Positions 36,733 through 53,867 of a DNA stretch of 64,000 nucleotides are shown in pieces. The position numbers and the translations under genes were made by a program. The stretch comes from Chlorobiota bacterium (lineage in GTDB: Bacteria; Bacteroidota; Ignavibacteria; Kapaibacteriales; NICIL-2). Numbering within the stretch: position 1 is the first letter of the stretch; every line of letters starts with the position of its first letter. The stretch lies in the NCBI GenBank assembly GCA_044228285.1, contig JBGAVD010000002.1:225653-289652 (forward strand), given 5' to 3'. The notes under the pieces are model-generated. The model had not been told where the DNA came from. It was given only the letters and a program-made list of their open reading frames with translations, and searched no databases.

Positions 36733-38175
36733 GTGGTGAATCATGTCCAGAGAATGTCGATCCTTGCAATATTGTTTCTTGTGAGTAGCACTGCCTACGC
36801 CCAACCGAAAAAGCCAGTGATTGATACCTTGAATGTCGGCTGGGGTTGGTTCGAGCTTTCTCTCTCAAACACAGACGCAGGTATACGGAACACTCAGTGG
36901 ATTGTGCTCGATGCAGGGGATACCGCGGTGTTTGACTCACGTCGAACATTGCCATGTATTTATGACAATTGTGAAATCATCAAAAGCTACAGCGCTGATA
37001 CGCGTGATCTTACGCATAAGCGAATTATCGGTTGTTCAGCTGGACAAACTCTACGCGCCAGAGCGCGGTACAATCTTGGGAATGATAACTGGTCAGAGTA
37101 TAGCAATACTATTGAGTTCCGATTACCAGACGAACCTGTGCGCACTGCAGATACGGTACGCGTGATTCTTTGGGGACAGTCGCACCTGCGCTGGGGCGAC
37201 GAATGCATGAAGGCGTGGCAGTTCATTTCTCCGTACGTGGATAACAATCGATACGCCGATGGTTATGAGTTATCCGAAAACTATGAGAATGACACGTACG
37301 GACATGCACTGCAAACTGAGTTGCGACGTATCATTCCTGGTGTACCTGTTGTCCTGTTGAACTACGGGAAATCAGGTTCCATGCTGGATTCAGGCTGGCT
37401 TCATCACAATACCTCCGATCCGATACTGAACGTCTCCAATATCACCATGTATGATCCAGGTCAGATGTTCGGTGATACGAAGAAGTTTCCCATCGCGGTC
37501 TTCTTTCACAGTAACAACGATGAGTATGCAATTAGCGCAACGCGCTACGCACAGGTTGTGGATTCCGCTATACATCGTCTGACAGATCTCGGTGTGAAAG
37601 TCGTGTTCAACTCTGTACACTACTCATCCCCGTTTCAAGATTGTTATGCCGGACATTCCGATTCCATTCAGCAAGAGTTCTTCGATGCCTGGGATAGGCA
37701 GCTCAACCAGGATGTGGCGAAGTATCCCGGAAAAGTATGGAAAGGCGCCGATCTCTTTCATCTGTTGAAGGCCGACACAGCACGCTTCTGGGCAGTGGAT
37801 GGTCAGCATCCGAATACTTCCGAAGGAGTCGATGCTATTGTCAGCTTGGTTGCACCTATCATTCGCAACGCAATACTTGCAACTACAGATGTATCGTCAA
37901 CAGATGACCCCAACATTGAGTTCTATACAACGAGCAACGATGGTACTGCTTCAAAGTTTCTAGAGTATAGAATCCCAGCTGGCATGAATGCTACACTTGA
38001 GCTGTATGATGTGAACGGAGCAGCTGTGTCGTCAATGCAAAGCAACTCAATGATCACAGGTTCAGGGCGTATTGATTTACAGCGCGAACATTTGAACACT
38101 GGTCTGTATTTCGGTGTTCTAAAGTGTGGAACGCACATGGTGGTGAAAAAGGTATTGGTTGTTGGGGCTAAGTGA
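36733..38175 (+). CDS. SGNH/GDSL-type hydrolase-like secreted protein with T9SS C-terminal sorting domain
   Basis: AGGAG 7 nt before GTG 36733 (alternative ATG at 36754); signal peptide; a DGQHP block V (DxxH) with carbohydrate-esterase-like composition; C-terminal ~75 aa look like a T9SS C-terminal domain. Confidence 0.5.
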   Translation: MVNHVQRMSILAILFLVSSTAYAQPKKPVIDTLNVGWGWFELSLSNTDAGIRNTQWIVLDAGDTAVFDSRRTLPCIYDNCEIIKSYSADTRDLTHKRIIGCSAGQTLRARARYNLGNDNWSEYSNTIEFRLPDEPVRTADTVRVILWGQSHLRWGDECMKAWQFISPYVDNNRYADGYELSENYENDTYGHALQTELRRIIPGVPVVLLNYGKSGSMLDSGWLHHNTSDPILNVSNITMYDPGQMFGDTKKFPIAVFFHSNNDEYAISATRYAQVVDSAIHRLTDLGVKVVFNSVHYSSPFQDCYAGHSDSIQQEFFDAWDRQLNQDVAKYPGKVWKGADLFHLLKADTARFWAVDGQHPNTSEGVDAIVSLVAPIIRNAILATTDVSSTDDPNIEFYTTSNDGTASKFLEYRIPAGMNATLELYDVNGAAVSSMQSNSMITGSGRIDLQREHLNTGLYFGVLKCGTHMVVKKVLVVGAK

Positions 38176-38962
38176 GGCTATGATGGTCTGACTCATGTCG
38201 GAGATCAGATCTACCGTGTATTTACGCACGTGTCGCAATGTCCTTTATTCGCATTGAAGCTAAACAACGATCGTGTTATGAGGATTGCGACGCGCTTTTC
38301 TGATAAGTTGCGCGATGAGAACTTGCGTCGTAGCACGATAGAGTGCTTTGCTTGATGAATTGTAAATTCCGACTGCTTTTTATGTGCGTGTTGGACGCGC
38401 CGCGGAAGACACGCCTTTGCCGAACCAAACTTTTTACTTCTGCGCAATTTGACTGTTTTGCGATGAATATGAGTGTGTCATTCGGTTCGGCCTTTCCAAG
38501 TTATCTACTAGAAGAGTAAATGATGAATGATGATGAGCATCCAGATTGGCTTCCTTATCATCCACGACTGAAGCACAACTTTGTCGTTGAGGTCTCTGCA
38601 ACTGCGCCAGCTCATCTGAACCCCGGAACGCAGGGATGGCTTGTTTCGTGGCTGGTGGCGAACAATGAATCAAGTTGTGAAAAGTATGGGGTCGATATTG
38701 GAACTTTTGTCTGTACAGTTGAGAAAATAGATGGATTTGACATTGTCGTTCCCGAACCGTACTTGATTTATCCCGATGACGAATCGGTTGTTAGTGTTAA
38801 GTGAAAACGCAAATCTATGCTTGTTTTATTACGGCTATGCGCTGTGAGACTCTATGCTTGGAACTCAACGGTTGTCGGTACCAGCACAGCATGGGAAGGA
38901 GTTCTAATGTATCAAAACACAAAACCCATTAGCTGTCTTTATTATCTGGAGATCCTTATAAA

Positions 38963-40939
38963 ATGAGAACCATGCATTTTTCTGCATGTAGCGCGCTATC
39001 GTTTCTGATCTTCGTTACTGGAGCACTGTTCGCGCAAAATTATAGTAGTATGAGATTAGACGGGGATCTGCTAAGAGTAGGCATGGTAGCGCCAGGAGTC
39101 GCCATGATTTACGGAACAAATGGTGTAGTCTTAAGAACAACAAACAATGGTGCCGAGTGGAAACAGGTGCCAATGAGAACGACTGAAAACTTCATAACGT
39201 TTGCAACAGATAATAAAGGGGAATGTCTATTGTTTGGTTCGGATACTTCGCTTTTCATTTCACGAGACTGGGGTGTACACTGGGATCGAGTTCTGTTGAG
39301 TGGAGCAGGTGGCTTTGTACGCTGCGCGTTGAACCTGACTGATTCTCGATACGTTTTGGGATGTTCGGATGGAAAGATATACACTTATGATTCAAGAAGA
39401 AATGAACTGAGTCCACGCATGCAAGATTCGGATACGTACGTATACGATATATGTTGCTACGATTCACTGCAGTTAATAGCAGTAAGCAAAGCGAACATAT
39501 TGCATAGTGACGATGGTGGAATTACCTGGGCAAGCCTAGCAGTACAGCCTGCTATCGATACGTCGTCAACGCCATTGTTTGTCTCACTCAGCCCGCACTC
39601 GAAATGCCTTGTCGTCCAGTACTACGACTTGAAGACAAAAAATGGATATGCAATGATTTCCAATGATACTGGTGCAAGCTGGTCAAGGAAAACCTTTTCG
39701 GCGTTGACCTCAAAGGCATCTTGGATAGATGATTCGACTGCTATCGTTGGATTCGGTTTGAACGAAGTCGAACTTATTTCAGGAATCAATACTAGTTCAA
39801 GTACGAAGATCAATCGCATAGACATCGACCCGGAAAGAAAGGCGCATTACAGCTTTATCAATTCTGCCTTTGTTCTTGATTCCGCGCACTATGTTGTAGT
39901 GGGTACCTCAAAGACTGTGTACGTGACCAGTGATAAAGGTACAACGTGGAGGATTGAGTCTTATCTATGTAACGGATCATATTCAGGAAAGCCGGGTAAC
40001 AGCGACTGGACTAGTACTAGAGTACTCGGCATCGATAATTGGATATACGCTTCCCATAGTCAGGAAGTGTTTCACACTACAAATGGTGGTGACACTTGGT
40101 TACCCTCAACTTTCCCTGAGGGTAGAGCTTCTTATCCAGCAACTGTGACGAATCTCATAGTATTGCCTAAGGGGCAGGTTGTCGTGAACACAACTGGGAG
40201 TACGTACTACAGCTCTATTGATTCCGGACTGACCTTTCTCCGGCATGCTAGAAGTTCTCAGCAATACGATGACGGCAGCTTTGGCCTCGCTTCACTTGAA
40301 CTTCGTAAAGTCTATCGCACCACAAGCTTTGGGTCTAACAGGGTCGAGGTCATTATTGATAGCGGGAGGAATTGGACTTACCTGCCAGATCAGTTTAAAG
40401 CTCGACGTATCGGATCACTTAAGTATGAGTGTATCCCTACAGACATCGTTCTTTTGGGCGAGTCATCACTATTCATTAGCCTCTACTACAGCATTACAAA
40501 CACCGATCAGAACACAAGTGAGTCAGGAATGCTGATAGTGGTTTCAGATGACGAACTTACGTCCTTAGATACCGTACTTATCTTACCTGGATACAATTCT
40601 GCGTCAATAAAAAGCAACGGGCGCTTGAACGCTTACATCATCGCAAATGGCTATGAGCCAGGTGCGGTCTCTACCGTCTACGAAACACGTGACGCTGGCA
40701 CTAGCTGGAAAAAGGTCGCGATAGCACCTGATGATGTTGAGTATTACAGCTACAGGATACTCGAAAGTGGATTCGGAGTTCGATCTGGCAAGCCGAACAT
40801 CATTGAGATTACAAAGGACCATGGGAAGACATGGCGCAACATTGCACCTCCTGACACAGCAGCTTATGCCTATTCAACACAAGTGTCAACACCTAATCGC
40901 ATTCTTGCGTTCACGGTAGACCCAAACAACATGAAGTAG
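38963..40939 (+). CDS. BNR/Asp-box repeat beta-propeller protein (sialidase-like / Ycf48-like fold), body portion of a T9SS cargo whose C-terminal domain is frame-shifted off
   Basis: Signal peptide; at least 8 Asp-box motifs S/T-x-D-x-G-x-T-W (SDDGGITW, SNDTGASW, TSDKGTTW, TNGGDTW, TRDAGTSW, TKDHGKTW...). Confidence 0.7.
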   Translation: MRTMHFSACSALSFLIFVTGALFAQNYSSMRLDGDLLRVGMVAPGVAMIYGTNGVVLRTTNNGAEWKQVPMRTTENFITFATDNKGECLLFGSDTSLFISRDWGVHWDRVLLSGAGGFVRCALNLTDSRYVLGCSDGKIYTYDSRRNELSPRMQDSDTYVYDICCYDSLQLIAVSKANILHSDDGGITWASLAVQPAIDTSSTPLFVSLSPHSKCLVVQYYDLKTKNGYAMISNDTGASWSRKTFSALTSKASWIDDSTAIVGFGLNEVELISGINTSSSTKINRIDIDPERKAHYSFINSAFVLDSAHYVVVGTSKTVYVTSDKGTTWRIESYLCNGSYSGKPGNSDWTSTRVLGIDNWIYASHSQEVFHTTNGGDTWLPSTFPEGRASYPATVTNLIVLPKGQVVVNTTGSTYYSSIDSGLTFLRHARSSQQYDDGSFGLASLELRKVYRTTSFGSNRVEVIIDSGRNWTYLPDQFKARRIGSLKYECIPTDIVLLGESSLFISLYYSITNTDQNTSESGMLIVVSDDELTSLDTVLILPGYNSASIKSNGRLNAYIIANGYEPGAVSTVYETRDAGTSWKKVAIAPDDVEYYSYRILESGFGVRSGKPNIIEITKDHGKTWRNIAPPDTAAYAYSTQVSTPNRILAFTVDPNNMK

Positions 40940-41223
40940 CTGCCCATGTGAGCGTGAGCGCTCTCTATCCAAATCCAAGTGGCAACGTGCAGTATCTTAC
41001 TGTTTCAAAACCATCGAACACAGACTACGGTCTCGTTCAATTGAGAGTCTATGATCTTAGAGGAATGCTTGTCAAAGATCTAAGCTCACTCTACAGAGAA
41101 TGTTATGCGGGAGAGCTAACGACTCTGCAATGGAGTAGTAAAGAGTTGTCTACAGGAGTGTACATGATAAAAGTGTCTGCTGGCGGTGAGTCGCAGACAA
41201 ATCTCTTTACGAAGCTACCGTAG
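40897..41223 (+). pseudogene. Detached T9SS C-terminal sorting domain, +1 frame relative to the BNR gene (frameshift within 40897-40939)
   Basis: ...LYPNPSGNVQYLTVSKPSNTDYGLVQLRVYDLRGMLVKDL...GVYMIKVSAGGESQTNLFTKLP is a canonical T9SS C-terminal domain, but it lies in frame 1 while the BNR body ends with TAG at 40937-40939 in frame 2. The C-terminal-domain frame is open from 40897. Confidence 0.6.
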
Positions 41224-41748
41224 TAGATTACTGTTTGTTTTAAGGCGGTATCGTAAGGGAGGCTCTGAGGGAATGCTTCACTTTTCAAGTGTACACTCGC
41301 CAGCTTTTCAGTGACCATGTTTGATGGTGTATACAGGGATCCGATCCAGAATCCTTTACACGCGCCCGACACAGACAAGGGGAGTTCTGAAGATTGATAT
41401 TCTGCCCGCAGTTGTTGCGGTCATAGAAATATGCGTCCAGGAACTGAAGCTGCCAACGATTAGCACCCAAATAGCCAACGACTACTTTAAAGAGATTTGT
41501 AAGTTAGCGGAGAGTAGTGAACCCGTCCCGTATACTCGACATTGCAGTAAGGAGCGCATTCATGACGCTAAATCGAAAGATGAGTTCATTGGCACACATT
41601 CTGCGCGCCCAACCTTCGTGACCCTGTCGGTGGAAAAGTGAGTACGTCGGGAAGTCTTGATGGAGCTTGCGGGGCACGAGGATGTAAGATCATTGATGGA
41701 ATAAGCGCCTATTGACGAACAGGTCGCGACTAGGGACATGACGAACGC

Positions 41749-42609
41749 GTGGAGCTAGGAGTAGTTTGTACAACTGGAGTAAGATCTGTGACCTGTGTGG
41801 TTGGTCCACACGTATTGGAACCTTCAATTGAAACGATTTCAGACGACATGAGGCAATCAGGTCGATACATAGTAAGAATGGCCTGGGCGCTTATCCCTGA
41901 GTATTACCGAGAACAGTCGCAGCGAATTGCGCCAACACCCTTTTATCGCAGACTTTTTAACATATTGAGCGGACAGAAGAGGCCTGCTTCCAATGCTTTT
42001 CAACTGTGGCACGGTCAACTTCGAGAAACGCTTCATTTCATGGAGCCAGAAAACTACCGAGGCATAGGGCGCGGCTACTTGCGCTCGGGTATTAGCTATG
42101 GTGTTGACGAAGAGGTGTCGAGAATAGAGGCTTTTTACGGAATTGATTTCTCCCCTAAAGATAATCTTCGAGCTCGTGAGTATATGGCTAAACTTGAGGA
42201 GAGGTATCAGTACGACACACAAGTTATTGTTCCGTGCCAGTATAGCGCGGCGGAATTGCTAAAGGCCTATGACCTGCTCGATAGTAAACATGAGTATGAG
42301 ATTATTGAGGTGACAGAAGGCAAAAAAGTATCTGACATTTCAACCCTTGGTTTTGATGTTGGAAGCTTGTCATACGGATACTCTGTAATTGCCGACGCTG
42401 CAATCATGCCGAACTCGTACCCTCCGGTGATTGACGCCATGGCGGATATTGTGGAGCAATTGAAGAAACTCAACCAGCATTGCTTGTTTTCCAAATATCA
42501 AGATGCCAGTGATTACTTAGCTTTGTACAACAGAAAGGTATTGGGGGCTAAAGGAGAATACTGTGTTGTACAAGTGCGGCTATTAATGCCTGAATCCTTG
42601 CAAAACTGA
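41749..42609 (+). CDS. Hypothetical protein (unknown family), first gene of the defence island
   Basis: 286-aa ORF with coding-like composition and no recognisable motifs; the start is uncertain (alternative Met at MRQSGRY / MAWALIPEYY). Confidence 0.45.
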   Translation: MELGVVCTTGVRSVTCVVGPHVLEPSIETISDDMRQSGRYIVRMAWALIPEYYREQSQRIAPTPFYRRLFNILSGQKRPASNAFQLWHGQLRETLHFMEPENYRGIGRGYLRSGISYGVDEEVSRIEAFYGIDFSPKDNLRAREYMAKLEERYQYDTQVIVPCQYSAAELLKAYDLLDSKHEYEIIEVTEGKKVSDISTLGFDVGSLSYGYSVIADAAIMPNSYPPVIDAMADIVEQLKKLNQHCLFSKYQDASDYLALYNRKVLGAKGEYCVVQVRLLMPESLQN

Positions 42610-42935: not shown

Positions 42936-45557
42936 ATGACTAAAATAGAGACGACATTTGTACCAATAGTCCTGCAACTTGATCGGGCTTATAACTCTAT
43001 TGATGATTCGGATATAGCTGGATTTTATGACTTGTTGCACCTAGGAGAAATGATTTCTAAAATCATTACATTATCTCTAGTTGCCGCCATTAAGAGCGAT
43101 TCTTTGCGCACACGATACAGTTTGCACTACGAATTAGTCCGGGCAGACAGTATTGGAGTATGGGCCGATGTACTCAGTAGAACCCTTGTCGGCCCTGCTC
43201 AGCAGCTACTTGATCGTCAATATCGAGATAACGAACTTAAAGAATTAACAATAAAAGTAAGTAGTGGGTGGCAATACGAAGCGCTTCAAAACTTAAACAC
43301 AGCATTAAATATATTTAGACGTGCAGGAAGCCTCCCAAGTAAAGTCCAGTTTCGCAACTGGTTTGCTATGTTTGTCCAGTTGCGCAATGCTACCCGCGGA
43401 CATGGTGCTCCATCAGGTGAGCAGTGCGCGGCGGCAATTGTACCACTACATGAGTCGCTGAAATATATCATCGAGAATTATTGTCTCTTTGGAAGAGAGT
43501 GGGCTTATTTACATGAAAGCTATTCAAAGAAATACAGAGTAACGGCTCTAAACGGTTCATCTATTTACTTTGACCACCTAAGAAAGAGTAAGGAGTACAG
43601 CACACGATACAAAGATGGTTTGTACGTTTACTACTCAGATATTACGACAGTTGACTTGATCTACTCTTCGGTGGATGCTATAGACTTTCACTTCGCCAAT
43701 GGTTCATTTGGTAGTAAGTATTTTGAAGCAATATCGTATTCATCGAATAGTACGATTGAGTGTGAAAGCGAGAATTATAAAATTCCTGTAATGGAATTGC
43801 AACAAAGTACAACTGATGGCTCTCAAACATTAAGCATCGAAGGCAACGTATTTACAAACAAGCCTGTTACTCCACCAGATTTGATCGACAGGACGGATCT
43901 TGAAGCTAGACTTAATTATGTATTGAGCGAAGTAAATCGTTACCCAATTGTTACCCTGCACGGTCGCGGTGGAATTGGAAAGACTTCACTCGCGCTGAAA
44001 GCACTTGCCGAAATAGTTACAACATCTCGCTATGATATAGTTTTGTGGTTTAGTAGTCGCGATATTGACCTTTTGCCTGAAGGCATTAGGCATGTACAAC
44101 CTGCTATTCTTAATGTGGAAGACATTGCGACATCGTTTATCAAAATGACTGGATCTATCGGCTTAGTAAATGAAACTCCAGTCGAATTGTTGGCTCGTCA
44201 TATGAAATCAAGTGAACTAGGGAGAATACTGTTTGTGTTCGACAATTTCGAAACCGTTGACAACCCCGCTGAGTTGTTCGCATGGATCAATAGTCACATT
44301 GAGAATCCAAACAAAGCGCTGATAACATCTCGAATAAGCAGTACATTTGTTGCGGATATTCCGATTGAGGTTGCTGGAATGTCAGAGGAGGAATGTCGTA
44401 ACTTGATAGAAGCATCTACAAAAACTCTGAGCATTCCACTAGAAGAAGATGTAATTAGAAATATATTGGATCAGTCAGATGGTCACCCGTACATTGTGAA
44501 AATACTCTTGGGATATTTTGCACTTAATCCAGAGCGCAGAAATGTTGAACAGGTGCTCGCATCTAAAGATGAACTATTGAACGCCCTCTTCAGTCGAACT
44601 TATAATTCATTGACAGTTGCGGCAAGAAGAGTGTTCCTGACCCTTTGTAGCTGGCGGATGATCATTCCACAATTAGCATTGGAGGCGGTTCTCTTGCGAC
44701 CCGAAAACGAGTACATGGATGTTGAGGAGGCTATAGAAGAGCTTCGTAAATCATCTCTCATTGAAATAGTGTACAGTGATGATAGGTATCCATACATTTC
44801 TGTTCCTCTCTCAGCGTTTATCTTTGGAAAGAGGGAATTGCAAGTATCGTATATGCAGACTTCAGTCTTAGCAGACAGGGCGTTGTTGCAGGAATTTGGT
44901 ACTAACAGTGCAGGTGCGCAATATTATGACATTGAACAGCGCGTTCTACAAAAAATAAAGATGGTTGCACGTCACGCTTCTGGAGATGTACATGAACTTA
45001 ATAAACGGTTGCCAACTTTAGAATATATTGCGCGCAGATATAATAAAGCGTGGAAGTATTTAGCAGATATGATGTACGATGTGGGGGAAAACGTCCGTGC
45101 ACATCAATATATAACAGAGTATCTGAAGACACCGATTGATCCTGATGAATCATATATAGTATGGAACAAGGTTGCAAAATGGAGTGCGGAGTCCCATGAC
45201 GTATTAAATGAAGTAAACGCCATGAATCATATTTGCAAGTCGATAAGGGCATCATCTAAGGAAATATTCAATATTGCTAGGAAAATCGACCTGTATATTA
45301 GAGAAAAGAAAATGTCTATGGGCGATTCTTCGTATGAAATTCATATGGAGACAATCGTGCGTGATATAATTACAGTATGTGACAAGCACATATATCGCAC
45401 TGGTACTGCAGATGACTATCTTGTGCTAGGAGAGCTCTCTCTTGTTCTAGGCGATCATTCAAGGGCAAAAAATTACATAGAGAAGGGACTCGAAAGATTT
45501 CCAACTTCAGGTAGATTGAAGAAGGCATTATATGCGACTGGAGCCTACTCTGCATAG
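42936..45557 (+). CDS. STAND-class P-loop NTPase (NB-ARC/AP-ATPase-like; Avs-like architecture): ~330-aa uncharacterised N-terminal domain, NTPase core, C-terminal helical/TPR-like repeats
   Basis: Walker A VTLHGRGGIGKTSLAL (aa ~343-351), Walker B ILFVFDNFE and an hhhTSR sensor-like ALITSRI. The C-terminal ~450 aa are helical repeats. The N-terminal region contains LRNATRGHG (R150-x5-H156), which matches the HEPN R-x4-6-H motif. The gene is AT-rich relative to its neighbours. Confidence 0.7.
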   Translation: MTKIETTFVPIVLQLDRAYNSIDDSDIAGFYDLLHLGEMISKIITLSLVAAIKSDSLRTRYSLHYELVRADSIGVWADVLSRTLVGPAQQLLDRQYRDNELKELTIKVSSGWQYEALQNLNTALNIFRRAGSLPSKVQFRNWFAMFVQLRNATRGHGAPSGEQCAAAIVPLHESLKYIIENYCLFGREWAYLHESYSKKYRVTALNGSSIYFDHLRKSKEYSTRYKDGLYVYYSDITTVDLIYSSVDAIDFHFANGSFGSKYFEAISYSSNSTIECESENYKIPVMELQQSTTDGSQTLSIEGNVFTNKPVTPPDLIDRTDLEARLNYVLSEVNRYPIVTLHGRGGIGKTSLALKALAEIVTTSRYDIVLWFSSRDIDLLPEGIRHVQPAILNVEDIATSFIKMTGSIGLVNETPVELLARHMKSSELGRILFVFDNFETVDNPAELFAWINSHIENPNKALITSRISSTFVADIPIEVAGMSEEECRNLIEASTKTLSIPLEEDVIRNILDQSDGHPYIVKILLGYFALNPERRNVEQVLASKDELLNALFSRTYNSLTVAARRVFLTLCSWRMIIPQLALEAVLLRPENEYMDVEEAIEELRKSSLIEIVYSDDRYPYISVPLSAFIFGKRELQVSYMQTSVLADRALLQEFGTNSAGAQYYDIEQRVLQKIKMVARHASGDVHELNKRLPTLEYIARRYNKAWKYLADMMYDVGENVRAHQYITEYLKTPIDPDESYIVWNKVAKWSAESHDVLNEVNAMNHICKSIRASSKEIFNIARKIDLYIREKKMSMGDSSYEIHMETIVRDIITVCDKHIYRTGTADDYLVLGELSLVLGDHSRAKNYIEKGLERFPTSGRLKKALYATGAYSA

Positions 45558-45826: not shown

Positions 45827-48800
45827 ATGCCTCATACCAAAAGCGTCTACGAATCGTCTTCTGACTCTAGGACTAAGCATGTCCGCGAAGAGCACATCGA
45901 ATACGGGTTCATCGATAGACTCCAAGAGCTCAAGTACGAGTATCGCAAGGACATCCGTGACCGCGCCGCCCTCGAACACAACTTCCGCGAAAAGTTCGAA
46001 TCCCTAAATCAAGTCAAGTTGTCGGATGCGGAGTTCGCGCGCCTGCTTGACGAAATCGTCAGCAACGACGTCTTCACCGCCTCCAAGACCCTACGAGAGC
46101 GCAACACCTTCATGCGTGAAGATGGCACGCCTCTGAATTTCACACTTGTCAACATCAAAGACTGGTGCAAAAACACCTTCGAAGTGGTTAATCAGTTGCG
46201 CATGAACACCGCTAACAGCCACCACCGCTATGATGTCATGCTGCTTATTAATGGTGTGCCAGTAGTTCAGATTGAGTTGAAGACTTTGAGCATCAGTCCA
46301 CGCCGTGCCATGGAGCAAATTGTGGACTACAAGAATGATCCGGGCAATGGCTATTCGAAGACTCTGCTGTGTTTCTTGCAGCTTTTCATAGTAAGCAATC
46401 GCTCGGAAACGTGGTACTTCGCCAACAACAACGCCCGACACTTCAGTTTCAATGCGGAAGAGCATTTCTTGCCTATCTATCAGTTTGCCACGGAAGACAA
46501 CAAGAAGGTTACTCACCTCGACATCTACGCCGAGATCTTCCTTGCGAAGTGTTCACTAGCGCAGACCATTAGCCGTTATATGGTACTGGTTGCTTCCGAA
46601 CAGAAGCTGCTCATGATGCGACCCTACCAGGTCTATGCCGTGAAGCATATTGTGGAATGCATTCATACCAACTCCGGTAATGGCTTTGTGTGGCATACCA
46701 CGGGGAGCGGTAAGACCCTGACATCATTCAAAGCTTCAACCCTGCTGAAAGACAATCCGGATATCGAGAAGTGTCTGTTTGTAGTAGACCGCAAAGACCT
46801 CGACCGACAAACCCGCGAAGAATTCAATCGTTTTCAGGAAAACTGCGTCGAGGAGAACACCCATACGAGCACGCTGGTGTCGCGGCTGCTTTCTGACGAC
46901 TACGCCGACAAGGTGATCGTCACCACCATTCAAAAGCTAGGTCTGGCTTTGGATGAAAACTCCAAACGCACTGCTTCTCGTGGTGAACGTGGCGCTAAAA
47001 CCTACAAGGAGCTGCTCGAGCCTCTGCGCAACAAGCGCATTGCCTTCATTTTTGATGAGTGTCACCGCTCACAGTTTGGCGATAACCATCAGGCAATACG
47101 TGATTTCTTTCCCAAAGCGCAGCTTTTTGGTTTTACAGGGACGCCGATTTTTGAAGAAAATGCGAGCGCGCAGAAAATTGAGGGACAACAAGCGTCAATG
47201 CGCACGACGCTGGACCTCTTTGAAAAGCAGCTTCATGCTTATACCATTACCCATGCCATTGAGGACGGAAACGTCCTGCGCTTTCACATCGACTACTTTA
47301 AGCCTGAAGGGCTTAACGATAAACCAAAACCGGGTGAAGCATATGCCAAGAAGGCGGTCATTGAAGCCATTCTGAGCAAGCATGATGCGGCAACGGGTGG
47401 ACGTCGCTTCAACGCTGTTCTTGCCACCTCCTCAATCAACGATGCCATTGAATATCACGCATTGTTTAAATCCATCCAGGCGGAGAAGCTGGCAGCGGAT
47501 CCGGAATTCAAAGCCCTGAACATTGCCTGTGTGTTCTCACCTCCGGCAGATGGTGATGCGGATGTGCGTCAAATCCAAGAAGACTTACCTCAAGAGCAAG
47601 CCGACAATCGCGAGAATCCTGAGGGCAAGAAGGCTGCGCTCATGAGCATATTGGCTGACTACAATGCTCAATATGGCACGAACCACCGCATCTCGGAGTT
47701 CGACCTATACTATCAAGACGTGCAATCTCGTATCAAGGCTCAGCAGTGGCCGAACAATGATTATCCGGCAACACAGAAGATTGATGTCACCATCGTGGTG
47801 GATATGCTACTCACGGGTTTTGATTCCAAGTACCTGAACACGCTCTATGTAGATAAGAATCTCAAGCATCATGGACTTATCCAGGCATTCTCGCGCACGA
47901 ACCGTGTATTGAATGGCACGAAGCCTTACGGGAACATTCTTGATTTTCGTCAGCAACAAGATGCCGTCGATGCAGCCATAGCCTTGTTCTCAGGCGAGAA
48001 GTCGGCCGAGCAGGCGCGCGAGATCTGGTTGGTAGATGAAGCCAGCGTAGTGATTCGCAAGCTGGATACGGCGGTGCAGAAGTTGGATGAGTTTATGAAG
48101 TCGCAGGGACTCGACTGTGCGCCGCACGAAGTCTCGAACCTCAAGGGTGACGAAGCCCGCGCGGCATTCATTACGCATTACAAAGAAGTGCAACGTCTGC
48201 AAACGCAGTTGGATCAGTACACGGATTTGACGACGGAGAACCGCGAGGAGATGGAGAGCATCATTGCGCACGACGACATGCGTGCTTTCAAGGCGCAATA
48301 CCTCGAAACAGCGAAGAAACTTAAAGCCTTGCAGGGCAACGGAGATAGCGATGGCTCTGCGACAAACGTTGCCGAACAGCTCGATTTCGAATTTGTGCTC
48401 TTTGCTTCGGCGGTTGTAGATTACGACTACATCATGAGTCTCATTGCGAAGTTCTCCGCCAAGGAACCGGGTAAGTCCAAGATGAGTCGCGAAGCACTCA
48501 TTGGCCTGATCAGTTCCGACGCGAAGTTCATGAACGAGCGCGACGACATAGCCGAGTACATCAACACGCTCAAAGCCGGTGAAGGTCTGAGCGAAACAGA
48601 GATCCGCGAAGGCTATGTGCGTTTCAAGGCTGAGAAGGAAGCCAAAGAGCTGGCAAGTATTGCAGCCCGACACAAGCTCGCAGCGAAAGCCTTGAAGGAC
48701 TTTGTTGATGGCATTCTGAACCGCATGATATTCGATGGAGACCAACTGAGCGACCTCATGCAACCACAAGACCTCAGTTGGAAAGAACGCACACAAGCAG

Positions 48801-48886
48801 AACTAGCCCTTATGAACGACCTCATTCCACTTCTTCTTAAGCGCGCCCAAGGGCGTGAGATATCGGGGTTGAGTGCGTATGAGTAA
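45827..48886 (+). CDS. hsdR: Type I restriction enzyme R subunit (HsdR)
   Basis: HsdR N-terminal nuclease region; helicase motif I WHTTGSGKTLTSF; motif II FDECHRSQFG (DECH); SF2 helicase C-terminal motifs; 1019 aa. Confidence 0.95.
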   Translation: MPHTKSVYESSSDSRTKHVREEHIEYGFIDRLQELKYEYRKDIRDRAALEHNFREKFESLNQVKLSDAEFARLLDEIVSNDVFTASKTLRERNTFMREDGTPLNFTLVNIKDWCKNTFEVVNQLRMNTANSHHRYDVMLLINGVPVVQIELKTLSISPRRAMEQIVDYKNDPGNGYSKTLLCFLQLFIVSNRSETWYFANNNARHFSFNAEEHFLPIYQFATEDNKKVTHLDIYAEIFLAKCSLAQTISRYMVLVASEQKLLMMRPYQVYAVKHIVECIHTNSGNGFVWHTTGSGKTLTSFKASTLLKDNPDIEKCLFVVDRKDLDRQTREEFNRFQENCVEENTHTSTLVSRLLSDDYADKVIVTTIQKLGLALDENSKRTASRGERGAKTYKELLEPLRNKRIAFIFDECHRSQFGDNHQAIRDFFPKAQLFGFTGTPIFEENASAQKIEGQQASMRTTLDLFEKQLHAYTITHAIEDGNVLRFHIDYFKPEGLNDKPKPGEAYAKKAVIEAILSKHDAATGGRRFNAVLATSSINDAIEYHALFKSIQAEKLAADPEFKALNIACVFSPPADGDADVRQIQEDLPQEQADNRENPEGKKAALMSILADYNAQYGTNHRISEFDLYYQDVQSRIKAQQWPNNDYPATQKIDVTIVVDMLLTGFDSKYLNTLYVDKNLKHHGLIQAFSRTNRVLNGTKPYGNILDFRQQQDAVDAAIALFSGEKSAEQAREIWLVDEASVVIRKLDTAVQKLDEFMKSQGLDCAPHEVSNLKGDEARAAFITHYKEVQRLQTQLDQYTDLTTENREEMESIIAHDDMRAFKAQYLETAKKLKALQGNGDSDGSATNVAEQLDFEFVLFASAVVDYDYIMSLIAKFSAKEPGKSKMSREALIGLISSDAKFMNERDDIAEYINTLKAGEGLSETEIREGYVRFKAEKEAKELASIAARHKLAAKALKDFVDGILNRMIFDGDQLSDLMQPQDLSWKERTQAELALMNDLIPLLLKRAQGREISGLSAYE

Positions 48887-50156
48887 GGGTCTAGATTCTT
48901 CCAAAAATCGATCATCGACATTGCCGGTTCCAAAACTTCGATTTCCTCAGTTTAAAGCAATGCCCGGTTGGATTGACGTACCATTGATCGGCATCACAAA
49001 CAGAGAAGTAAAGTGGAGTTTTACAGGTGGTCCGTTCGGGTCTAATTTAAAGGCCTCCGACTACACCGATTCAGGTATACGTATAATCCAGTTGCAAAAT
49101 ATCGGAGATGGTATATTTCACGATGAATACCACGTCTATACATCGGTAGATAAAGCGGACGAGTTGCGAAGTTCTAATATCTATCCCGGCGAGATAATCA
49201 TGTCCAAAATGGGTGATCCAGTAGGACGCGCATGCTTTGTTCCTGTGGAAAGGGCAAGATATTTGATGTGCTCAGATGGTATTCGTGTGGTAGTTAACGA
49301 GTCTGAACACGATAAGTACTTCATTTACTCGCAAATCAACTCTCAGTCGTTTAGGAAAATCGTAGAAAGCAACGCCACAGGTTCAACTCGAAAACGCATC
49401 GGACTCGAGGAACTAAAAAAACTGTCTCTTGCGATACCTACTAAGGAGGAACAACAAAAAATCGCCCACTGCCTAAGTTCTCTGGACGAGCTGATAGCCG
49501 CCCAAGCCCGCAAAGTGGAGGCGCTCAAGAAACACAAAAAAGGTCTGATGCAACAGCTTTTCCCACGCGAAGGGGAGACAGTGCCGAGGTTGAGGTTTGA
49601 GGAGTTTAGGGGGAGTGGGGAGTGGGAGGTAAAATACTTGTTCAATGTATGTGATATGGGTGCCGGAAAGTTCGTTGCAGCTGCGGAGATATTCGAAATT
49701 TACGGTGCAGGTTGTTATCCGTGCTACGGCGGTAACGGTTTACGCGGGTATACTCAAACTTTCACCCACAGTGGTACATTCCCAATAGTTGGGCGTCAAG
49801 GAGCACTTTGTGGCAACGTTAAACTGGTTCAGGGCCATTTCCATGCTACAGAACATGCAGTAGTCGCAACTCCGAACTCAAATGTGGACGTCTATTGGTT
49901 GTATCACCAACTTGACAAAATGAACCTAAACAGGTATGCAACCGGGCAGGCGCAACCGGGCTTGTCAGTCGACACTATTGGAAAATTGCAGATCCGTGTA
50001 CCATATGCAATTGCGGAGCAGAGAAAAGTTGGCGAAACTCTTAATGCCATTGACGTTGCAATTTTCGAGTGCTCTCAAAAGATAGAATTATTTCATCGCT
50101 TTAAGAGCGGCTTGATGCAAGTCTTGTTCCCAAGTGCACCGATGGCAAAGGAGTAA
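48879..50156 (+). CDS. hsdS: Type I restriction-modification specificity subunit (HsdS), two target-recognition domains
   Basis: Two variable target-recognition domains separated by, and followed by, conserved coiled-coil repeats (LDELIAAQARKVEALKKHKKGLMQQLFP / IELFHRFKSGLMQVLFP). The ATG at 48879 overlaps the hsdR stop (ATGAGTAA). Confidence 0.9.
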   Translation: MSKGLDSSKNRSSTLPVPKLRFPQFKAMPGWIDVPLIGITNREVKWSFTGGPFGSNLKASDYTDSGIRIIQLQNIGDGIFHDEYHVYTSVDKADELRSSNIYPGEIIMSKMGDPVGRACFVPVERARYLMCSDGIRVVVNESEHDKYFIYSQINSQSFRKIVESNATGSTRKRIGLEELKKLSLAIPTKEEQQKIAHCLSSLDELIAAQARKVEALKKHKKGLMQQLFPREGETVPRLRFEEFRGSGEWEVKYLFNVCDMGAGKFVAAAEIFEIYGAGCYPCYGGNGLRGYTQTFTHSGTFPIVGRQGALCGNVKLVQGHFHATEHAVVATPNSNVDVYWLYHQLDKMNLNRYATGQAQPGLSVDTIGKLQIRVPYAIAEQRKVGETLNAIDVAIFECSQKIELFHRFKSGLMQVLFPSAPMAKE

Positions 50157-50195
50157 CTTACTTCCCAGTTGAACACGCCTCCACACAACAGCTTT

Positions 50196-51809
50196 ATGAC
50201 AGACACTAACCAAAAACAACTAGGCACAACTCTCTGGAAGATAGCCGATCAACTCCGCGGCGCCATGAACGCGGACGACTTCCGCGATTACATGCTGTCC
50301 TTCCTCTTCCTTCGCTACCTCTCCGACAACTACGAGACGGCGGCAAAGAAGGAACTGGGCAAGGACTACCCCTTGGTCGATGCAGATGAGCGCCGTGTGC
50401 CCCTAGCAAAGTGGTACGACGAAAATGCGAAGGACGTCGTCGAGTTCGAAAAACAGATGCGTCGCAAGGTGCATTATGTTATACAGCCGCTACACTTGTG
50501 GAACAGTATATCCAATCTGGCGCGTACGCAGGATGGTGAGCTGCTTCACACGCTCCAAGACGGCTTCAAGTACATTGAGACAGAGTCATTCGAGAGCACT
50601 TTCCAGGGGCTGTTCTCTGAGATCGACCTCAACTCTGCCAAGCTAGGGAAGAACTACACTGAACGCAACACCAAGCTTTGCGCCATCATCTCGGAAATTG
50701 CCAAAGGTCTGGCGGAATTCTCGACGGACATCGATGCGCTGGGCGATGCCTATGAGTACCTCATCGGACAATTCGCTGCCGGTTCCGGCAAGAAAGCGGG
50801 GGAATTCTATACGCCGCAGCAGATATCGGATATTTTGTCGGCCATTGTCACCCTCGATAGCCAAGAACCCAAAACCGGCACCAAGCAACGTCTGGAAAAC
50901 GTCCTCGACTTCGCCTGTGGCTCCGGCTCCTTGCTGCTCAACGTGCGCAAGCGCATGAAGAAGTCGGGCGGTACCATTGGCAAAATCTACGGTCAGGAAA
51001 AGAACATCACTACCTACAACCTCGCTCGCATGAACATGCTGCTGCATGGCGTGAAGGACAGCGAGTTTGAGATCTACCACGGCGATACTCTGCTCAATGA
51101 TTGGGACATGATGCGAGAGCTCAATCCTGCCAAAAAGCCTTCGTTCGACGCAATAGTGGCAAATCCACCCTTCAGTTACCGTTGGGATCCCAGCGAAAGC
51201 ATGGCAGATGATGTGCGTTTTAAGAGTCACGGAGTGGCCCCCAAATCCGCCGCTGACTTCGCCTTTTTGCTCCACGGTTTCCATTTCCTGAAGGATGAAG
51301 GCGTCATGGCCATCATTCTCCCGCACGGCGTCCTTTTCCGCGGCGGAGCCGAGGAACGCATCCGCACCAAGCTGCTCAAGGATGGTCATATTGATACCGT
51401 TATTGGTCTGCCTGCAAATCTATTCTACTCAACGGGGATTCCGGTTTGCATCCTTGTTCTCAAGAAGTGCAAGAAGTCTGACGACGTGTTGTTCATCAAT
51501 GCCGCCGAGCACTTCGAGAAAGGCAAACGTCAAAACCAGCTGAAGCCAGAACATATTGCCAAAATCGTAGACACCTATCAAAACCGCAGCGAAGAAGAAC
51601 GCTATGCTAAGCGCATATCCATGCAGCGTATTGAGGAAGAGGGGTACAACCTCAACATCTCACGCTATATCAGCACCGCCGTTGCCGAAGACGAGATCGA
51701 CTTAGCGGCTACGCATGTAGAGTTGGTGAAGATTGAGGCGGTGATTCAGGCGGCGAAGGGGAAGCACAATGCGTTTATGAGTGAGTTGGGGTTGGAGGAG
51801 TTGCCGTAG
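50196..51809 (+). CDS. hsdM: Type I restriction-modification N6-adenine DNA methyltransferase subunit (HsdM)
   Basis: HsdM N-terminal domain (LWKIADQLRG); SAM-binding motif I (LDFACGSGSLL); catalytic NPPF (IVANPPFSYRW). Start chosen at ATG 50196 by alignment to HsdM N-termini (the ORF tool used TTG 50169). Confidence 0.95.
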   Translation: MTDTNQKQLGTTLWKIADQLRGAMNADDFRDYMLSFLFLRYLSDNYETAAKKELGKDYPLVDADERRVPLAKWYDENAKDVVEFEKQMRRKVHYVIQPLHLWNSISNLARTQDGELLHTLQDGFKYIETESFESTFQGLFSEIDLNSAKLGKNYTERNTKLCAIISEIAKGLAEFSTDIDALGDAYEYLIGQFAAGSGKKAGEFYTPQQISDILSAIVTLDSQEPKTGTKQRLENVLDFACGSGSLLLNVRKRMKKSGGTIGKIYGQEKNITTYNLARMNMLLHGVKDSEFEIYHGDTLLNDWDMMRELNPAKKPSFDAIVANPPFSYRWDPSESMADDVRFKSHGVAPKSAADFAFLLHGFHFLKDEGVMAIILPHGVLFRGGAEERIRTKLLKDGHIDTVIGLPANLFYSTGIPVCILVLKKCKKSDDVLFINAAEHFEKGKRQNQLKPEHIAKIVDTYQNRSEEERYAKRISMQRIEEEGYNLNISRYISTAVAEDEIDLAATHVELVKIEAVIQAAKGKHNAFMSELGLEELP

Positions 51810-52242: not shown

Positions 52243-52419
52243 TATCACTAGTGTCCCGTTGTTTTAATACCACTGCGCCTGAAACTGTTGCCAGATCTTG
52301 CTTGCAGAGCTTTTTGGAAGCGCCACGATTTGAAATCTACGGTCTGACAAATGTGCCTCATTTGGCTTAGAATCGACGTTTTTTTATTCGTGTTTTAAAA
52401 CTGCGGGACACTAGTGATA
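52243..52419. repeat. 16-bp perfect inverted repeat pair (extends to ~24 bp with 2 mismatches) flanking ~145 bp; MITE-like element or long hairpin
   Basis: tatcactagtgtcccg at 52243-52258 and cgggacactagtgata at 52404-52419 are exact reverse complements. The adjoining ttgtttta / taaaactg extend the match. Confidence 0.6.
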
Positions 52420-52643
52420 ATGTATTGTAAATGACAATAAATGTTGGTCACCGGGTGTGTTACGGTCTAGAAACGTCGTATCGGGATTGTTAGATAGGCT
52501 AACACTTGAGAATGCCTTTACCCATGGCTTGTTGCTTTCATCACTTTTAATGAATCTAAATTACAATCCATTTAATTCATTTTTAATTGAAAATAGATCG
52601 TTTTTGTCTAAAAGAAGAGTATGTCAATCTATATAAAAATACG

Positions 52644-53867
52644 ATGAGTTGCATAATAATTTTAGGCGCTGGTGCGTCGATTCCTTTTTACAGTCCGAAG
52701 CTTACGACTGATTATTTGACTAAGGTCGTGTTAGATACGACCAAGTGGAATGATATTGTCATTAGATATAACAATTCAATCCCGGCACATGCTACCGGCG
52801 TCGACGTTTCTGTTGTGCAGCAGGTATTCCATAATGTTTCCACTGCACATCGTGACTATAACTTTGAACAGATATTAGAAATTGTCGATAAAATTAGTTC
52901 GTTTAGTATTGATCCGTACTCAGATTCGAAAGTACTACATGGGATTTTGCAATATTATAAAGCTCAGGTGTCTGTAAGCTCAGAACACGCATGGGATTGC
53001 GTTCCATTTCTCGCACGACAGATAATAGCAGAAGAGGTGTCTTCTTTGCATATGACGTGTAAGTCTTATGACTATACACGATTGACTCAATTGCAGGAGC
53101 AATTTTTAGCTTCTATTTGTGATGAAGGAGCGGTGAACATATTTACGCTTAATTACGACGAAATAATATTTGACGCCGTCGCTAAATTGGGATTCCAGTT
53201 GGGTTTTGACAGCAATGATCGCTTTGATATCCGTTCATTTATTGCCGCTGATAGAAGTATTTCATTTCCGCACGGTCATTCAAGGTTCAGTTATGATGAC
53301 TACGGTATGTTATATCATCATGGCAGCGAGGATGCAAATAAGTATAGATTAAGTCATATTGGATTAAGTAATATGTCGGAAACCAAGTACTTAACCGACA
53401 GTGCATACTCATATTCGTTCAACACTTTTATTTCAACAGGGCAACAGAAAGAGCCTACATTTGATGTTAATCCATTTGCTGCATATTATCAAAAATTTGC
53501 AAGTGATTGTTTAAAATCGAATAAAATAATTGTCGTCGGATATTCTTTTTCGGATTCGCATTTCAACAGGATGTTGTTGAACTATTTGAGCATTTCGTCT
53601 TCAAACAAAGTAATAATAATAGATTATATTCCTCAAGCTATCGACATACAAGCGGAGTTTGTAACATCAGGCAGTTTTATTAATAGAATGTTCAATCAGT
53701 TGGGAGTGAATTCGATTCCAATGGATGGACTAACGCATAAATATAAATATTATCAGGCTGAGCATGAGTTAAATATGGATGGATATGCAGAGATTTTGCC
53801 GCAAATAGTATTATACAAGAAGGGATACGATGCATATTTGAACGAGTTTAACTCAATTAAGGTGTGA
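52644..53867 (+). CDS. Stand-alone SIR2_2-family (ThsA/DSR-type SIR2-like) protein, putative NAD+-depleting defence effector
   Basis: Begins IIILGAGAS (Rossmann GAGxS). The family motifs TLNYD, HHGS and VVGYSFSDSHF are present in the expected order. Very AT-rich gene preceded by a 780-bp AT-rich spacer. Confidence 0.65.
   Translation: MSCIIILGAGASIPFYSPKLTTDYLTKVVLDTTKWNDIVIRYNNSIPAHATGVDVSVVQQVFHNVSTAHRDYNFEQILEIVDKISSFSIDPYSDSKVLHGILQYYKAQVSVSSEHAWDCVPFLARQIIAEEVSSLHMTCKSYDYTRLTQLQEQFLASICDEGAVNIFTLNYDEIIFDAVAKLGFQLGFDSNDRFDIRSFIAADRSISFPHGHSRFSYDDYGMLYHHGSEDANKYRLSHIGLSNMSETKYLTDSAYSYSFNTFISTGQQKEPTFDVNPFAAYYQKFASDCLKSNKIIVVGYSFSDSHFNRMLLNYLSISSSNKVIIIDYIPQAIDIQAEFVTSGSFINRMFNQLGVNSIPMDGLTHKYKYYQAEHELNMDGYAEILPQIVLYKKGYDAYLNEFNSIKV

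Follow-up and report, generated by a model that had tools for sequence, protein, structure and literature searches.

The open reading frame at 42936..45557 on the + strand of the window (the whole 64,000-nucleotide stretch of DNA analysed here) encodes a protein of 873 amino acids, which we interpret, with a probability of about two in three, as an Avs-like (NLR-like) stand-alone anti-phage sensor comprising a HEPN RNase (residues 1-187), a beta domain with linker (188-318), an NB-ARC switch (319-640) and a TPR sensor (641-873). The front end of the protein, which carries no annotation, very probably represents an RNA-cutting domain of HEPN type; RNase activity and anti-phage activity are inferred. 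The tripartite layout of effector, STAND NTPase and C-terminal sensor is present in one stand-alone gene.

The reading frame is real (ORF list) and lies exactly at the coordinates given by the first-pass annotation; an identical protein is already on record (P0001), and the N-terminus aligns with the N-termini of homologues. Residues 1-325 are without a match in Pfam, NCBIfam, PADLOC or PHROGs, as the first-pass annotation had supposed for an N-terminal domain of ~330 residues, but this region proved to be three pieces (helical 1-187, beta-rich 188-285 and linker 286-318) rather than one domain. Public annotation of the family reads only 'NB-ARC domain-containing protein' or 'hypothetical'. 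The features of the gene are as follows.

42936..45557, + strand: whole gene, HEPN-like / beta domain / NB-ARC STAND NTPase / TPR; stop codon at 45555-45557
42936..43496, + strand: all-helical HEPN-like domain, predicted RNase effector, residues 1-187
43047..43061, + strand: E38-x3-K42 in the second helix, a HEPN-type E-x3-[KR] motif (motif as in PMC3710099)
43383..43406, + strand: R150-N151-A-T153-R-G155-H156-G157, R-x5-H putative catalytic motif, from conservation in 83 relatives
43497..43790, + strand: beta-rich domain, residues 188-285, with about 8 strands and 1 helix (AF2 secondary structure)
43791..43889, + strand: lower-confidence linker (pLDDT 60-76), residues 286-318, with conserved L-P-x-S-E-T-x-G (S291, T293) and N308/P310
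43890..44345, + strand: nucleotide-binding domain, residues 319-470 (Pfam NB-ARC, E=1.9e-10)
43962-43985, + strand: Walker A, G343-T350
44229-44255, + strand: Walker B, LFVFDNFET, residues 432-440
44316-44333, + strand: sensor-1, ALITSR, residues 461-466
44346..44855, + strand: helical and winged-helix part of the STAND module, residues 471-640 (the NB-ARC match extends to residue 545)
44481-44492, + strand: G516-H-P-Y motif, GLPL equivalent (H517 in 82/83, P518 in 83/83)
44856..45554, + strand: short TPR-like helical repeat region, presumed sensor, residues 641-873 (TPR_14 828-865, TPR_2 827-857)

The segment FAMFVQLRNATRGHGAPSG (residues 143-161) holds R150 and H156, which the first-pass annotation had picked out as being spaced like the catalytic pair of HEPN RNases. 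The positions were right, but spacing alone is no better than chance: R-x4-6-H occurs five times in the 873-residue protein against 3.6 occurrences expected from composition, and in a single sequence the motif is therefore at chance level. We take it as real because of its conservation, with the R150/H156 pair found in 83/83 family members and the other four R-x4-6-H pairs in only 1-32 of the 83. These relatives come from GTDB species representatives of more than 15 phyla and are 34-44% identical. R150, N151, H156 and G157 were each present in all 83 (T153 and G155 in 76 apiece) and were likewise invariant in 75 full-length homologues, so that the two residues singled out from the sequence were both borne out. 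A second HEPN hallmark, which the first-pass annotation did not mention, is provided by E38 (83/83) and K42 (82/83, with R in the remaining one). Mean identity across the domain of residues 1-187 is ~39%, against the near-total invariance of these motif residues.

Residues 1-189 were modelled at a pLDDT of 96.9. In the predicted structure E38-M-I-S-K42 lies within helix 26-50, R150-N151 at the C-terminal end of helix 141-154 and H156 in the loop 155-160, before the next helix (161-181), and a helical insert separates core helices 2 and 3. Residues 1-187 are predicted to be all-helical and to form a HEPN-like four-helix up-and-down bundle similar to solved HEPN domains; HEPN chains hold 11 of the top 20 places among the 48,164 chains searched, though they are a small minority of them. 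The HEPN reading thus withstood the structural comparison. By published definition, HEPN families carry R-x4-6-H with a polar residue after the R and, in many but not all of them, E-x3-[KR] in helix-2 (PMC3710099); inserts between helices 2 and 3 are frequent. The motif anatomy seen here agrees with this in the N after R, the helix-3 end/loop position, the helix-2 E-x3-K and the helical insert.

A HEPN-like fold might serve instead as a module for ligand or partner binding, or for oligomerisation as an adaptor, and cleave no RNA, in the manner of the HEPN domains of kanamycin nucleotidyltransferase, GlnE and MtlR. We consider this improbable, as R, N, H and the E/K pair do not vary among the more than 15 phyla represented, whereas non-catalytic HEPN families are those that have lost R-x4-6-H (PMC3710099); the protein also has no other effector domain, and no conserved neighbouring gene that could provide one.

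No named HEPN family was reached by sequence. Pfam HEPN families gave no match at E <=10 to the whole protein, to 22 N-terminal segments or to 29 insert-deleted 'mini-HEPN' constructs, and scans of individual family members against Pfam with the helical domain, beta domain and mini-HEPN returned scattered noise only. Sequence and profile searches of the PDB with the whole protein, helical domain, beta domain and mini-HEPN found no relevant match, and Foldseek against the PDB, a comparison that the first-pass annotation had proposed, returned only aquaporin-type noise. A genuine HepT/DUF86 HEPN gene at locus L066 was found by motif and confirmed by the PF01934 annotation of its homologues; aligned by hhalign with the N-terminal family, HepT/DUF86 (the only HEPN family compared profile to profile) gave a probability of ~1%, so there is no detectable link between the two. 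The helical domain could be unrelated to HEPN and belong to some other four-helix-bundle enzyme or toxin (a new nuclease or phosphodiesterase, for example), with a fortuitous R/N/H cluster and a merely generic bundle likeness. This we hold to be just as improbable as a non-cleaving HEPN, given the share of HEPN chains among the top structural matches and the fit of motif spacing, polar residue after R, helix-3 end/loop position and helix-2 E-x3-K to the HEPN definition. DinB-type bundles work with a His triad, but only one His of the domain is invariant; a DinB-like metalloenzyme was itself ruled out on this count.

Between the predicted effector and the NTPase, the beta domain (residues 188-285) was modelled with high confidence (AF2 pLDDT ~95-98) and has W189, G228, N255 and G256 as invariant residues; it has no Pfam or PDB profile match. 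The linker that follows (286-318) is conserved at S291, T293 and N308 (82/83 each) and at P310 (83/83).

The NTPase core proposed by the first-pass annotation was confirmed, with Pfam NB-ARC (PF00931) matching residues 326-545 at 40.9 bits (cut-off 23.5), while NACHT (E=1.6e-3), nSTAND3 and nSTAND5 all fell below their own cut-offs. GRGGIGKTS (343-351) satisfies the Walker A consensus GxxxxGK[ST], and sensor-1 (A-L-I-T464-S-R466) and the GxP motif (G516-H517-P518-Y) are both present. K349, T350, D436, N437, E439 and R466 are each found in 83/83 relatives. The Walker B had been given as hhhhDD and was misread in that respect: it is LFVFD436-N437-F-E439, in which an invariant Asn replaces the second acidic residue and an invariant Glu stands two further on. 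NACHT proteins have a Walker B of the form D-G-x-D-E, to which D-N-F-E is loosely similar. ATP binding by the STAND module is likely; hydrolysis may be atypical, because the Walker B carries N for the second acidic residue. Residues 319-640 (nucleotide-binding domain with helical and winged-helix parts) are the best-conserved regions of the protein, at 51% mean pairwise identity, and the C-terminal region (641-873) is the least conserved, at 33%. The description of this C-terminus as helical-repeat held, with TPR_14 matching residues 828-865 at 27 bits (Pfam cut-off 23.5) and TPR_2 residues 827-857; homologues are annotated with TPR_2, TPR_8, TPR_14 and TPR_19.

A word-indexed homology search with residues 1-333 alone found no relatives, which was a sensitivity artefact, since an exhaustive HMMER scan gave 522. 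Searching with the full-length protein returned more than 1,200; grouped at 90% identity, the family numbers more than 1,200 clusters. Relatives occur in at least 300 GTDB species genomes, at only 34-44% identity. Their spread is patchy and takes in Bacteroidota, Acidobacteriota, Chloroflexota, Planctomycetota, Verrucomicrobiota, Actinomycetota, Pseudomonadota, Myxococcota, Bacillota and other phyla. No homologue was found in the phage collection. Homologues are carried on megaplasmids of Ralstonia solanacearum, which is culturable.

In the window the gene adjoins a type I restriction-modification operon (hsdR-hsdS-hsdM) and a defence-type SIR2 gene, and its GC content is 41% against 46-50% in the flanks. 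An upstream ORF of 286 amino acids is an orphan. Scans of the surrounding sequence for promoters, terminators, Rfam families and repeats gave background levels only. By all-against-all ORF clustering the gene is solitary and without a conserved partner, the largest neighbour cluster covering 9/86 loci. In a set of 146 flanking genes, the families that recurred most were of restriction-modification or defence type (ResIII, Methylase_S, Eco57I, DEAD, Helicase_C, GmrSD_N and phage integrase), each in only 2-3 of the 146 (raw counts), and type I restriction-modification lay within 10 kb in 6-7/84 loci (about 8%, raw count). Since many homologues stand between housekeeping genes, the defence-island signal is moderate. 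No model in PADLOC-DB v2 matched the protein, with only a sub-threshold P-loop match to TRIP13 (E=0.022).

The setting of several homologues amid ordinary metabolic genes, the few loci with type I restriction-modification nearby and the lack of a PADLOC match would all suit a housekeeping or regulatory STAND, acting in the manner of the signalling ATPases MalT and AfsR, for which the restriction-modification neighbours in the window would be coincidental. This is the least probable of the readings that we weighed. The protein has no DNA-binding or other output domain, its spread over many phyla is patchy at 34-44% identity with a GC content below that of its flanks, its C-terminal region diverges fastest, and the commonest flanking families are restriction-modification, helicase, GmrSD and integrase; an Alicyclobacillus homologue lies amid transposases, reverse transcriptases and a MORC-like HATPase_c_3 protein. 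A transcription-factor STAND was ruled out, there being no DNA-binding domain.

For the preferred reading of an Avs-like sensor with a HEPN effector, we infer an RNA target, a trigger, oligomerisation-driven activation and an anti-phage role. The resting protein would be a closed, autoinhibited monomer, in which binding of a phage- or infection-derived ligand to the TPR region would open the NTPase for ATP binding and oligomerisation. The N-terminal HEPN domains would be paired by oligomerisation, and two R150-N151-x4-H156 motifs together with E38/K42 would then form a composite metal-independent RNase site of the kind typical of HEPN. Cellular RNA, most likely tRNA or mRNA, would be cut as a result, and the infected cell would be arrested by abortive infection. 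Counted against this explanation were the missing sequence link to a named HEPN, the noise returned by Foldseek against the PDB, the many homologues set between housekeeping genes, the ~230-residue sensor, the atypical Walker B and the missing PADLOC model.

The family is large and widespread and has never been named or tested, while the kind of fusion that it represents was already predicted. It would offer a clean single-gene test case for a bacterial NLR with RNase output, with sharply defined candidate catalytic residues (E38, K42, R150, N151 and H156), and a HEPN profile built from it would annotate more than 1,000 proteins and fill a missing model in PADLOC, the sole defence-finder library searched. 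More tentatively, and as something possible rather than probable, the protein may be the founding member of an unrecognised and very widespread RNA-targeting antiviral STAND clade, with a new HEPN family always joined to a beta domain of its own and to an invariant S-x-T motif in the linker, and with a short sensor and D-N Walker B that point to a trigger and switching unlike those of the large shape-complementary sensors of Avs1-21. If so, the sensor might respond to a small ligand or peptide, or to a host factor that has been modified, and the beta domain could act in RNA binding or as an autoinhibitory latch.

Proteins with an N-terminal HEPN, a STAND and TPRs (with or without S1) were catalogued computationally in 2013 by Anantharaman et al. 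(PMC3710099), with Npun_F6454, MED222_16016, Desac_1927 and B. cereus gi 229028907 as examples (Table 1, 'other fusions', beside CXorf38 entries). These share with the present protein an N-terminal HEPN in which R-x4-6-H is intact, followed by a STAND NTPase and TPRs at the C-terminus, and a suicidal or defensive RNase role was predicted for them. Compared by description only, the present family differs in that no Pfam HEPN model, the Swt1-like one included, matches its domain, and in its large insert between helices 2 and 3, its R-x5-H spacing, its obligatory beta domain and its lack of S1/OB. A STAND NTPase is also paired with a HEPN effector in the anti-phage bNACHT family, for which metal-independent RNases of HEPN type are listed among the enzymatic effectors (Kibby et al., bioRxiv 2022.07.19.500537); the NTPase here, in contrast, is NB-ARC (E=1.9e-10), with NACHT below its cut-off at E=1.6e-3. 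The first-pass annotation had proposed a HEPN-effector antiviral STAND outside the characterised sets, of which the HEPN reading and the missing PADLOC model stood, but since HEPN-STAND-TPR and HEPN-NACHT fusions were already described, the novelty is smaller than it implied.

HEPN RNases turned on by ligand-driven dimerisation or oligomerisation are found in RNase L and Ire1 (KEN) and in CRISPR Csm6/Csx1, with which the protein has no detectable sequence similarity and whose sensors are different, being a (pseudo)kinase with 2-5A or a CARF with cyclic oligoadenylate. DARNA/PD-T7-3, ApeA, HepS and PrrC combine an N-terminal HEPN R-x4-H with a helical C-terminal sensor and bring about abortive infection by tRNA cleavage, with HEPN dimers within higher oligomers (bioRxiv 10.64898/2026.02.22.705581). 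Unlike the present protein they have no NTPase switch, being triggered by SSB-bound ssDNA or other cues, and no sequence match to them was detected.

In the literature searched, predictions of HEPN effectors joined to STAND/NLR-like sensors go back to 2013, and the Avs effectors characterised there comprise DNases (Cap4 and Mrr), SIR2 and proteases, with no HEPN among them. Avs proteins activate N-terminal nucleases by tetramerisation once the sensor has bound its target; the families described are Avs1-5 and Avs7-21 (Gao lab; PMC13581612). The present protein departs from them in its sensor, which at ~230 residues is below the 400-residue minimum for the sensor clustering of Lee et al. (PMC13581612), in its D-N Walker B and in being missed by the PADLOC Avs models. 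It resembles them as a single-gene combination of effector, NTPase and TPR sensor; Avs families are horizontally mobile and associated with defence islands, as the present family may be, and in Avs proteins it is target-induced oligomerisation that assembles the effector.

The open reading frame proposed for the STAND NTPase was present in exactly the claimed place, at 42936-45557 on the plus strand (873 aa), and the strings quoted from it were correctly placed (GRGGIGKTS at aa 343-351, ALITSR at aa 461-466 and FAMFVQLRNATRGHGAPSG at aa 143-161, which makes the numbering of Arg150 and His156 right). The NTPase core matched Pfam NB-ARC at aa 326-545 (40.9 bits against a cut-off of 23.5) and the helical-repeat C-terminus matched TPR_14 at aa 828-865, while aa 1-325, described in the first-pass annotation as matching no family it recognised, gave zero matches in Pfam, PADLOC, NCBIfam and PHROGs and no match to PDB by sequence. 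The Walker B motif had been misread as hhhhDD, being LFVFD436-N437 followed by an invariant E439. This element (aa 432-440, window 44229-44255), with D436-N437-F-E439-T440 invariant, differs from the usual hhhhD[DE] and is unusual for a STAND protein scoring as NB-ARC; the D-G-x-D-E Walker B of NACHT recalls its form. The D-N pair suggests, speculatively, that hydrolysis is slow or absent, in which case the switch would be a one-way commitment.

AlphaFold2 modelling with 75 aligned homologues (pLDDT 93.7 for aa 1-333, 96.9 for aa 1-189) divided the N-terminal region, previously taken as a single domain of about 330 aa, into three parts, of which the helical domain is just the first:

aa 9-24, 26-50, 141-154 and 161-181, with a helical insert at 59-127: helices of the all-helical domain
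aa 188-285: beta-rich domain of about 8 strands
aa 286-318 (window 43791-43889): linker, pLDDT 60-76

As the query contains five R-x4-6-H pairs where its Arg and His composition predicts 3.6, a lone pair in one sequence is no evidence. Across relatives, R150 and H156 were both invariant in the 75 homologues and in 83 genome-derived relatives, as were N151 and G157, with T153 and G155 kept in more than 90% of each set independently; the other four pairs were kept in just 1-32 of the 83. This conservation was decisive for the R150/H156 motif being real. A second-helix E-x3-K pair was similarly retained (E38 in 83/83; K42 in 82/83, plus one R).

In the model, the N-terminus formed a helical bundle that was HEPN-like in motif placement, with R150-N151 ending helix 141-154 and H156 in the loop 155-160 before helix 161-181, and with E38 and K42 within helix 26-50. 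In the reference account of the HEPN superfamily (Anantharaman et al. 2013, PMC3710099), R is mostly followed by N, D or H, helix-2 of many families bears an additional E-x3-[KR] motif, and the fold is typically marked by an insert separating helices 2 and 3; all four relevant statements of that paper hold for the predicted aa 1-187 domain, in which aa 59-127 make up the insert. Fold comparison scored the domain against the Roquin N-terminus (7.1 and 6.4), HI0074 (7.0), LsoA (6.4), TTHA0636 (1wwp) and two RnlA entries (6.3 each), HepT toxins 8xdj and 5yep (6.1), Csx1 (5.9), Csm6 (5.8), MtlR and AF0298 (5.6), AbiA and the HEPN toxin 7ae2 (5.5), LAS1L (5.4) and Sacsin HEPN (5.3). A Foldseek check against PDB returned noise alone, HMM and profile tests were all negative, and hhalign against a HepT/DUF86 family assembled for comparison gave about 1% probability; these results speak against the HEPN assignment or at least lend it no support. 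We put at roughly three in four the probability that the helical domain represents a new HEPN family of divergent sequence, recognised by predicted fold and motif and missed by existing profiles. Motif conservation and predicted fold support the proposed HEPN-like effector, for which we infer RNase activity.

The linker motif L-P-x-S291-E-T293-x-G was almost invariant (L288, S291 and T293 each in 82/83), with G295, N308 and P310 also nearly invariant despite the low-confidence prediction, and could be a regulatory latch or modification site. With a mean pairwise identity of 0.42-0.45, the beta domain and linker are about as well conserved as the helical domain (0.39).

A full-length search found more than 1,200 related clusters at 90% identity, the best 120 of which were about 850-900 aa long and 38-45% identical, with query coverage of 86-99% (most 96-99%). 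Scanning 1.84 billion representatives exhaustively by HMMER, with only aa 1-333 as query, gave 522 relatives, nearly all of query-like length or fragments at contig ends; the few longer ones retain NB-ARC and TPR, so the N-terminal module seems tied to a single STAND family. Among GTDB species representatives, at least 300 genomes held a confirmed relative, all 34-44% identical to the query, in groups that include Bacteroidota, Ignavibacteria, Acidobacteriota, Chloroflexota, Planctomycetota, Verrucomicrobiota, Actinomycetota (Micromonospora, Streptomyces), Alpha-, Beta- and Gammaproteobacteria, Myxococcota, Bacillota, Patescibacteria, WOR-3, Omnitrophota, Gemmatimonadota and Deinococcota. A search of the phage collection yielded no homologue. 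Full-length homologues with every motif kept (34% identity) are carried on megaplasmids of the culturable plant pathogen Ralstonia solanacearum (NC_017575.1 128289-130826; NZ_CP051295.1 1851132-1853669). In R. solanacearum NZ_CP155589.1 and NZ_CP155592.1 the match ends at about aa 638, and the sensor region may have been lost or replaced.

The STAND gene is solitary, set between non-coding stretches of 326 bp (upstream) and 270 bp (downstream), and has 41% GC against 46-50% in its flanks. Its surroundings in the window are:

36733-41223: upstream genes with Por_Secre_tail (T9SS sorting) and BNR/sortilin repeats, indicative of a Bacteroidota/FCB-group host
41321-41641: 106-aa ORF ending ...IGTHSARPTFVTLSVEK, like the C-terminal box of tyrosine recombinases
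41749-42609, same strand: 286-aa orphan ORF directly upstream
45827-48886: hsdR (1019 aa), directly downstream, strong Pfam match
48873-50156: hsdS (427 aa), 14 nt overlap with hsdR, strong Pfam match
50169-51809: hsdM (546 aa), strong Pfam match, completing a type I R-M operon in the order hsdR, hsdS, hsdM
52243-52270 / 52392-52419: 28-nt inverted repeat, 89% complementary, arms 121 nt apart, between hsdM and the SIR2 gene
52587-53867: SIR2-like gene (426 aa SIR2_2 protein) in a 36-38% GC patch, PADLOC Aga_SIR2 E=1e-17

The SIR2 protein matches defence-associated SIR2 models, with no Argonaute or other partner adjacent. Its gene is possibly a defence system standing alone, in which case 42.9-53.9 kb would be an island of three such systems. 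The inverted repeat may be a MITE-like element or island junction, and the 106-aa ORF, which matched nothing in Pfam or PADLOC, could be an integrase remnant at an island border. For the 286-aa ORF, searches of Pfam, PADLOC, NCBIfam and PHROGs were all negative, and none of 84 homologous loci has a relative of it nearby.

No recurrent neighbour ORF family was found in 86 loci around homologues (largest cluster 9/86). Among 146 directly flanking genes the commonest Pfam families, each seen 3 times, were ResIII, Methylase_S, Eco57I methylase, DEAD and Helicase_C; GmrSD_N and phage integrase followed with 2 occurrences apiece. Type I R-M components lay within 10 kb of the homologue in 6-7 of 84 loci, by rough estimate about ten times the random-gene level; one homologue sits in an island with a transposon, reverse transcriptase and MORC-like gene, and others amid housekeeping genes. 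Near a Dehalococcoidia homologue (L024, 13952-14461) a 169-aa ORF, without PDB match by sequence, has a HEPN-type motif of the form R-N-x3-H-x-Y (Q-R-N-R-E-A-H-T-Y) and may encode a further HEPN protein not yet classified. The genomic context of the family, its patchy phyletic spread and its C-terminal region, the fastest to diverge (33% mean pairwise identity versus 51% for the NTPase), fit a mobile single-gene defence system; the signal from context is moderate rather than overwhelming.

From a directly observed parts list, we infer a mechanism in which the TPR region would sense an infection cue and the STAND module would take up ATP and oligomerise, as demonstrated for Avs proteins. The N-terminal HEPN domains would then pair, a dimeric composite site being typically needed by HEPN RNases, and cut RNA, tRNA or mRNA being the most plausible substrates, as in PrrC, HepT, ApeA and DARNA (bioRxiv 10.64898/2026.02.22.705581), presumably arresting growth of the infected cell.

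The observation was confirmed and its HEPN-STAND interpretation supported. The suggestion of an Avs-like RNase outside the characterised sets stood in part: the accessible literature yielded no Avs whose HEPN effector had been characterised by experiment and the family is undescribed, but N-terminal HEPN with STAND and TPR(+S1) has been on record since 2013 (Npun_F6454, MED222_16016, Desac_1927 and a B. cereus example; PMC3710099). Bacterial NACHT proteins likewise have HEPN listed as one of their enzymatic effectors (bioRxiv 2022.07.19.500537), and HEPN effectors also occur together with inactive STANDs. The 2026 prokaryotic STAND census (Lee et al., PMC13581612; 589 clades, 198 of them defence clades) clustered only sensors of at least 400 aa, a limit under which the roughly 230-aa sensor of the query family would drop out of the sensor clustering. 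Given the earlier HEPN-STAND and HEPN-NACHT listings, the architecture counts as already known; neither this particular family nor its variant of HEPN or its beta domain has been described or annotated, and the family is an abundant, well-defined and directly testable candidate rather than a conceptual surprise.
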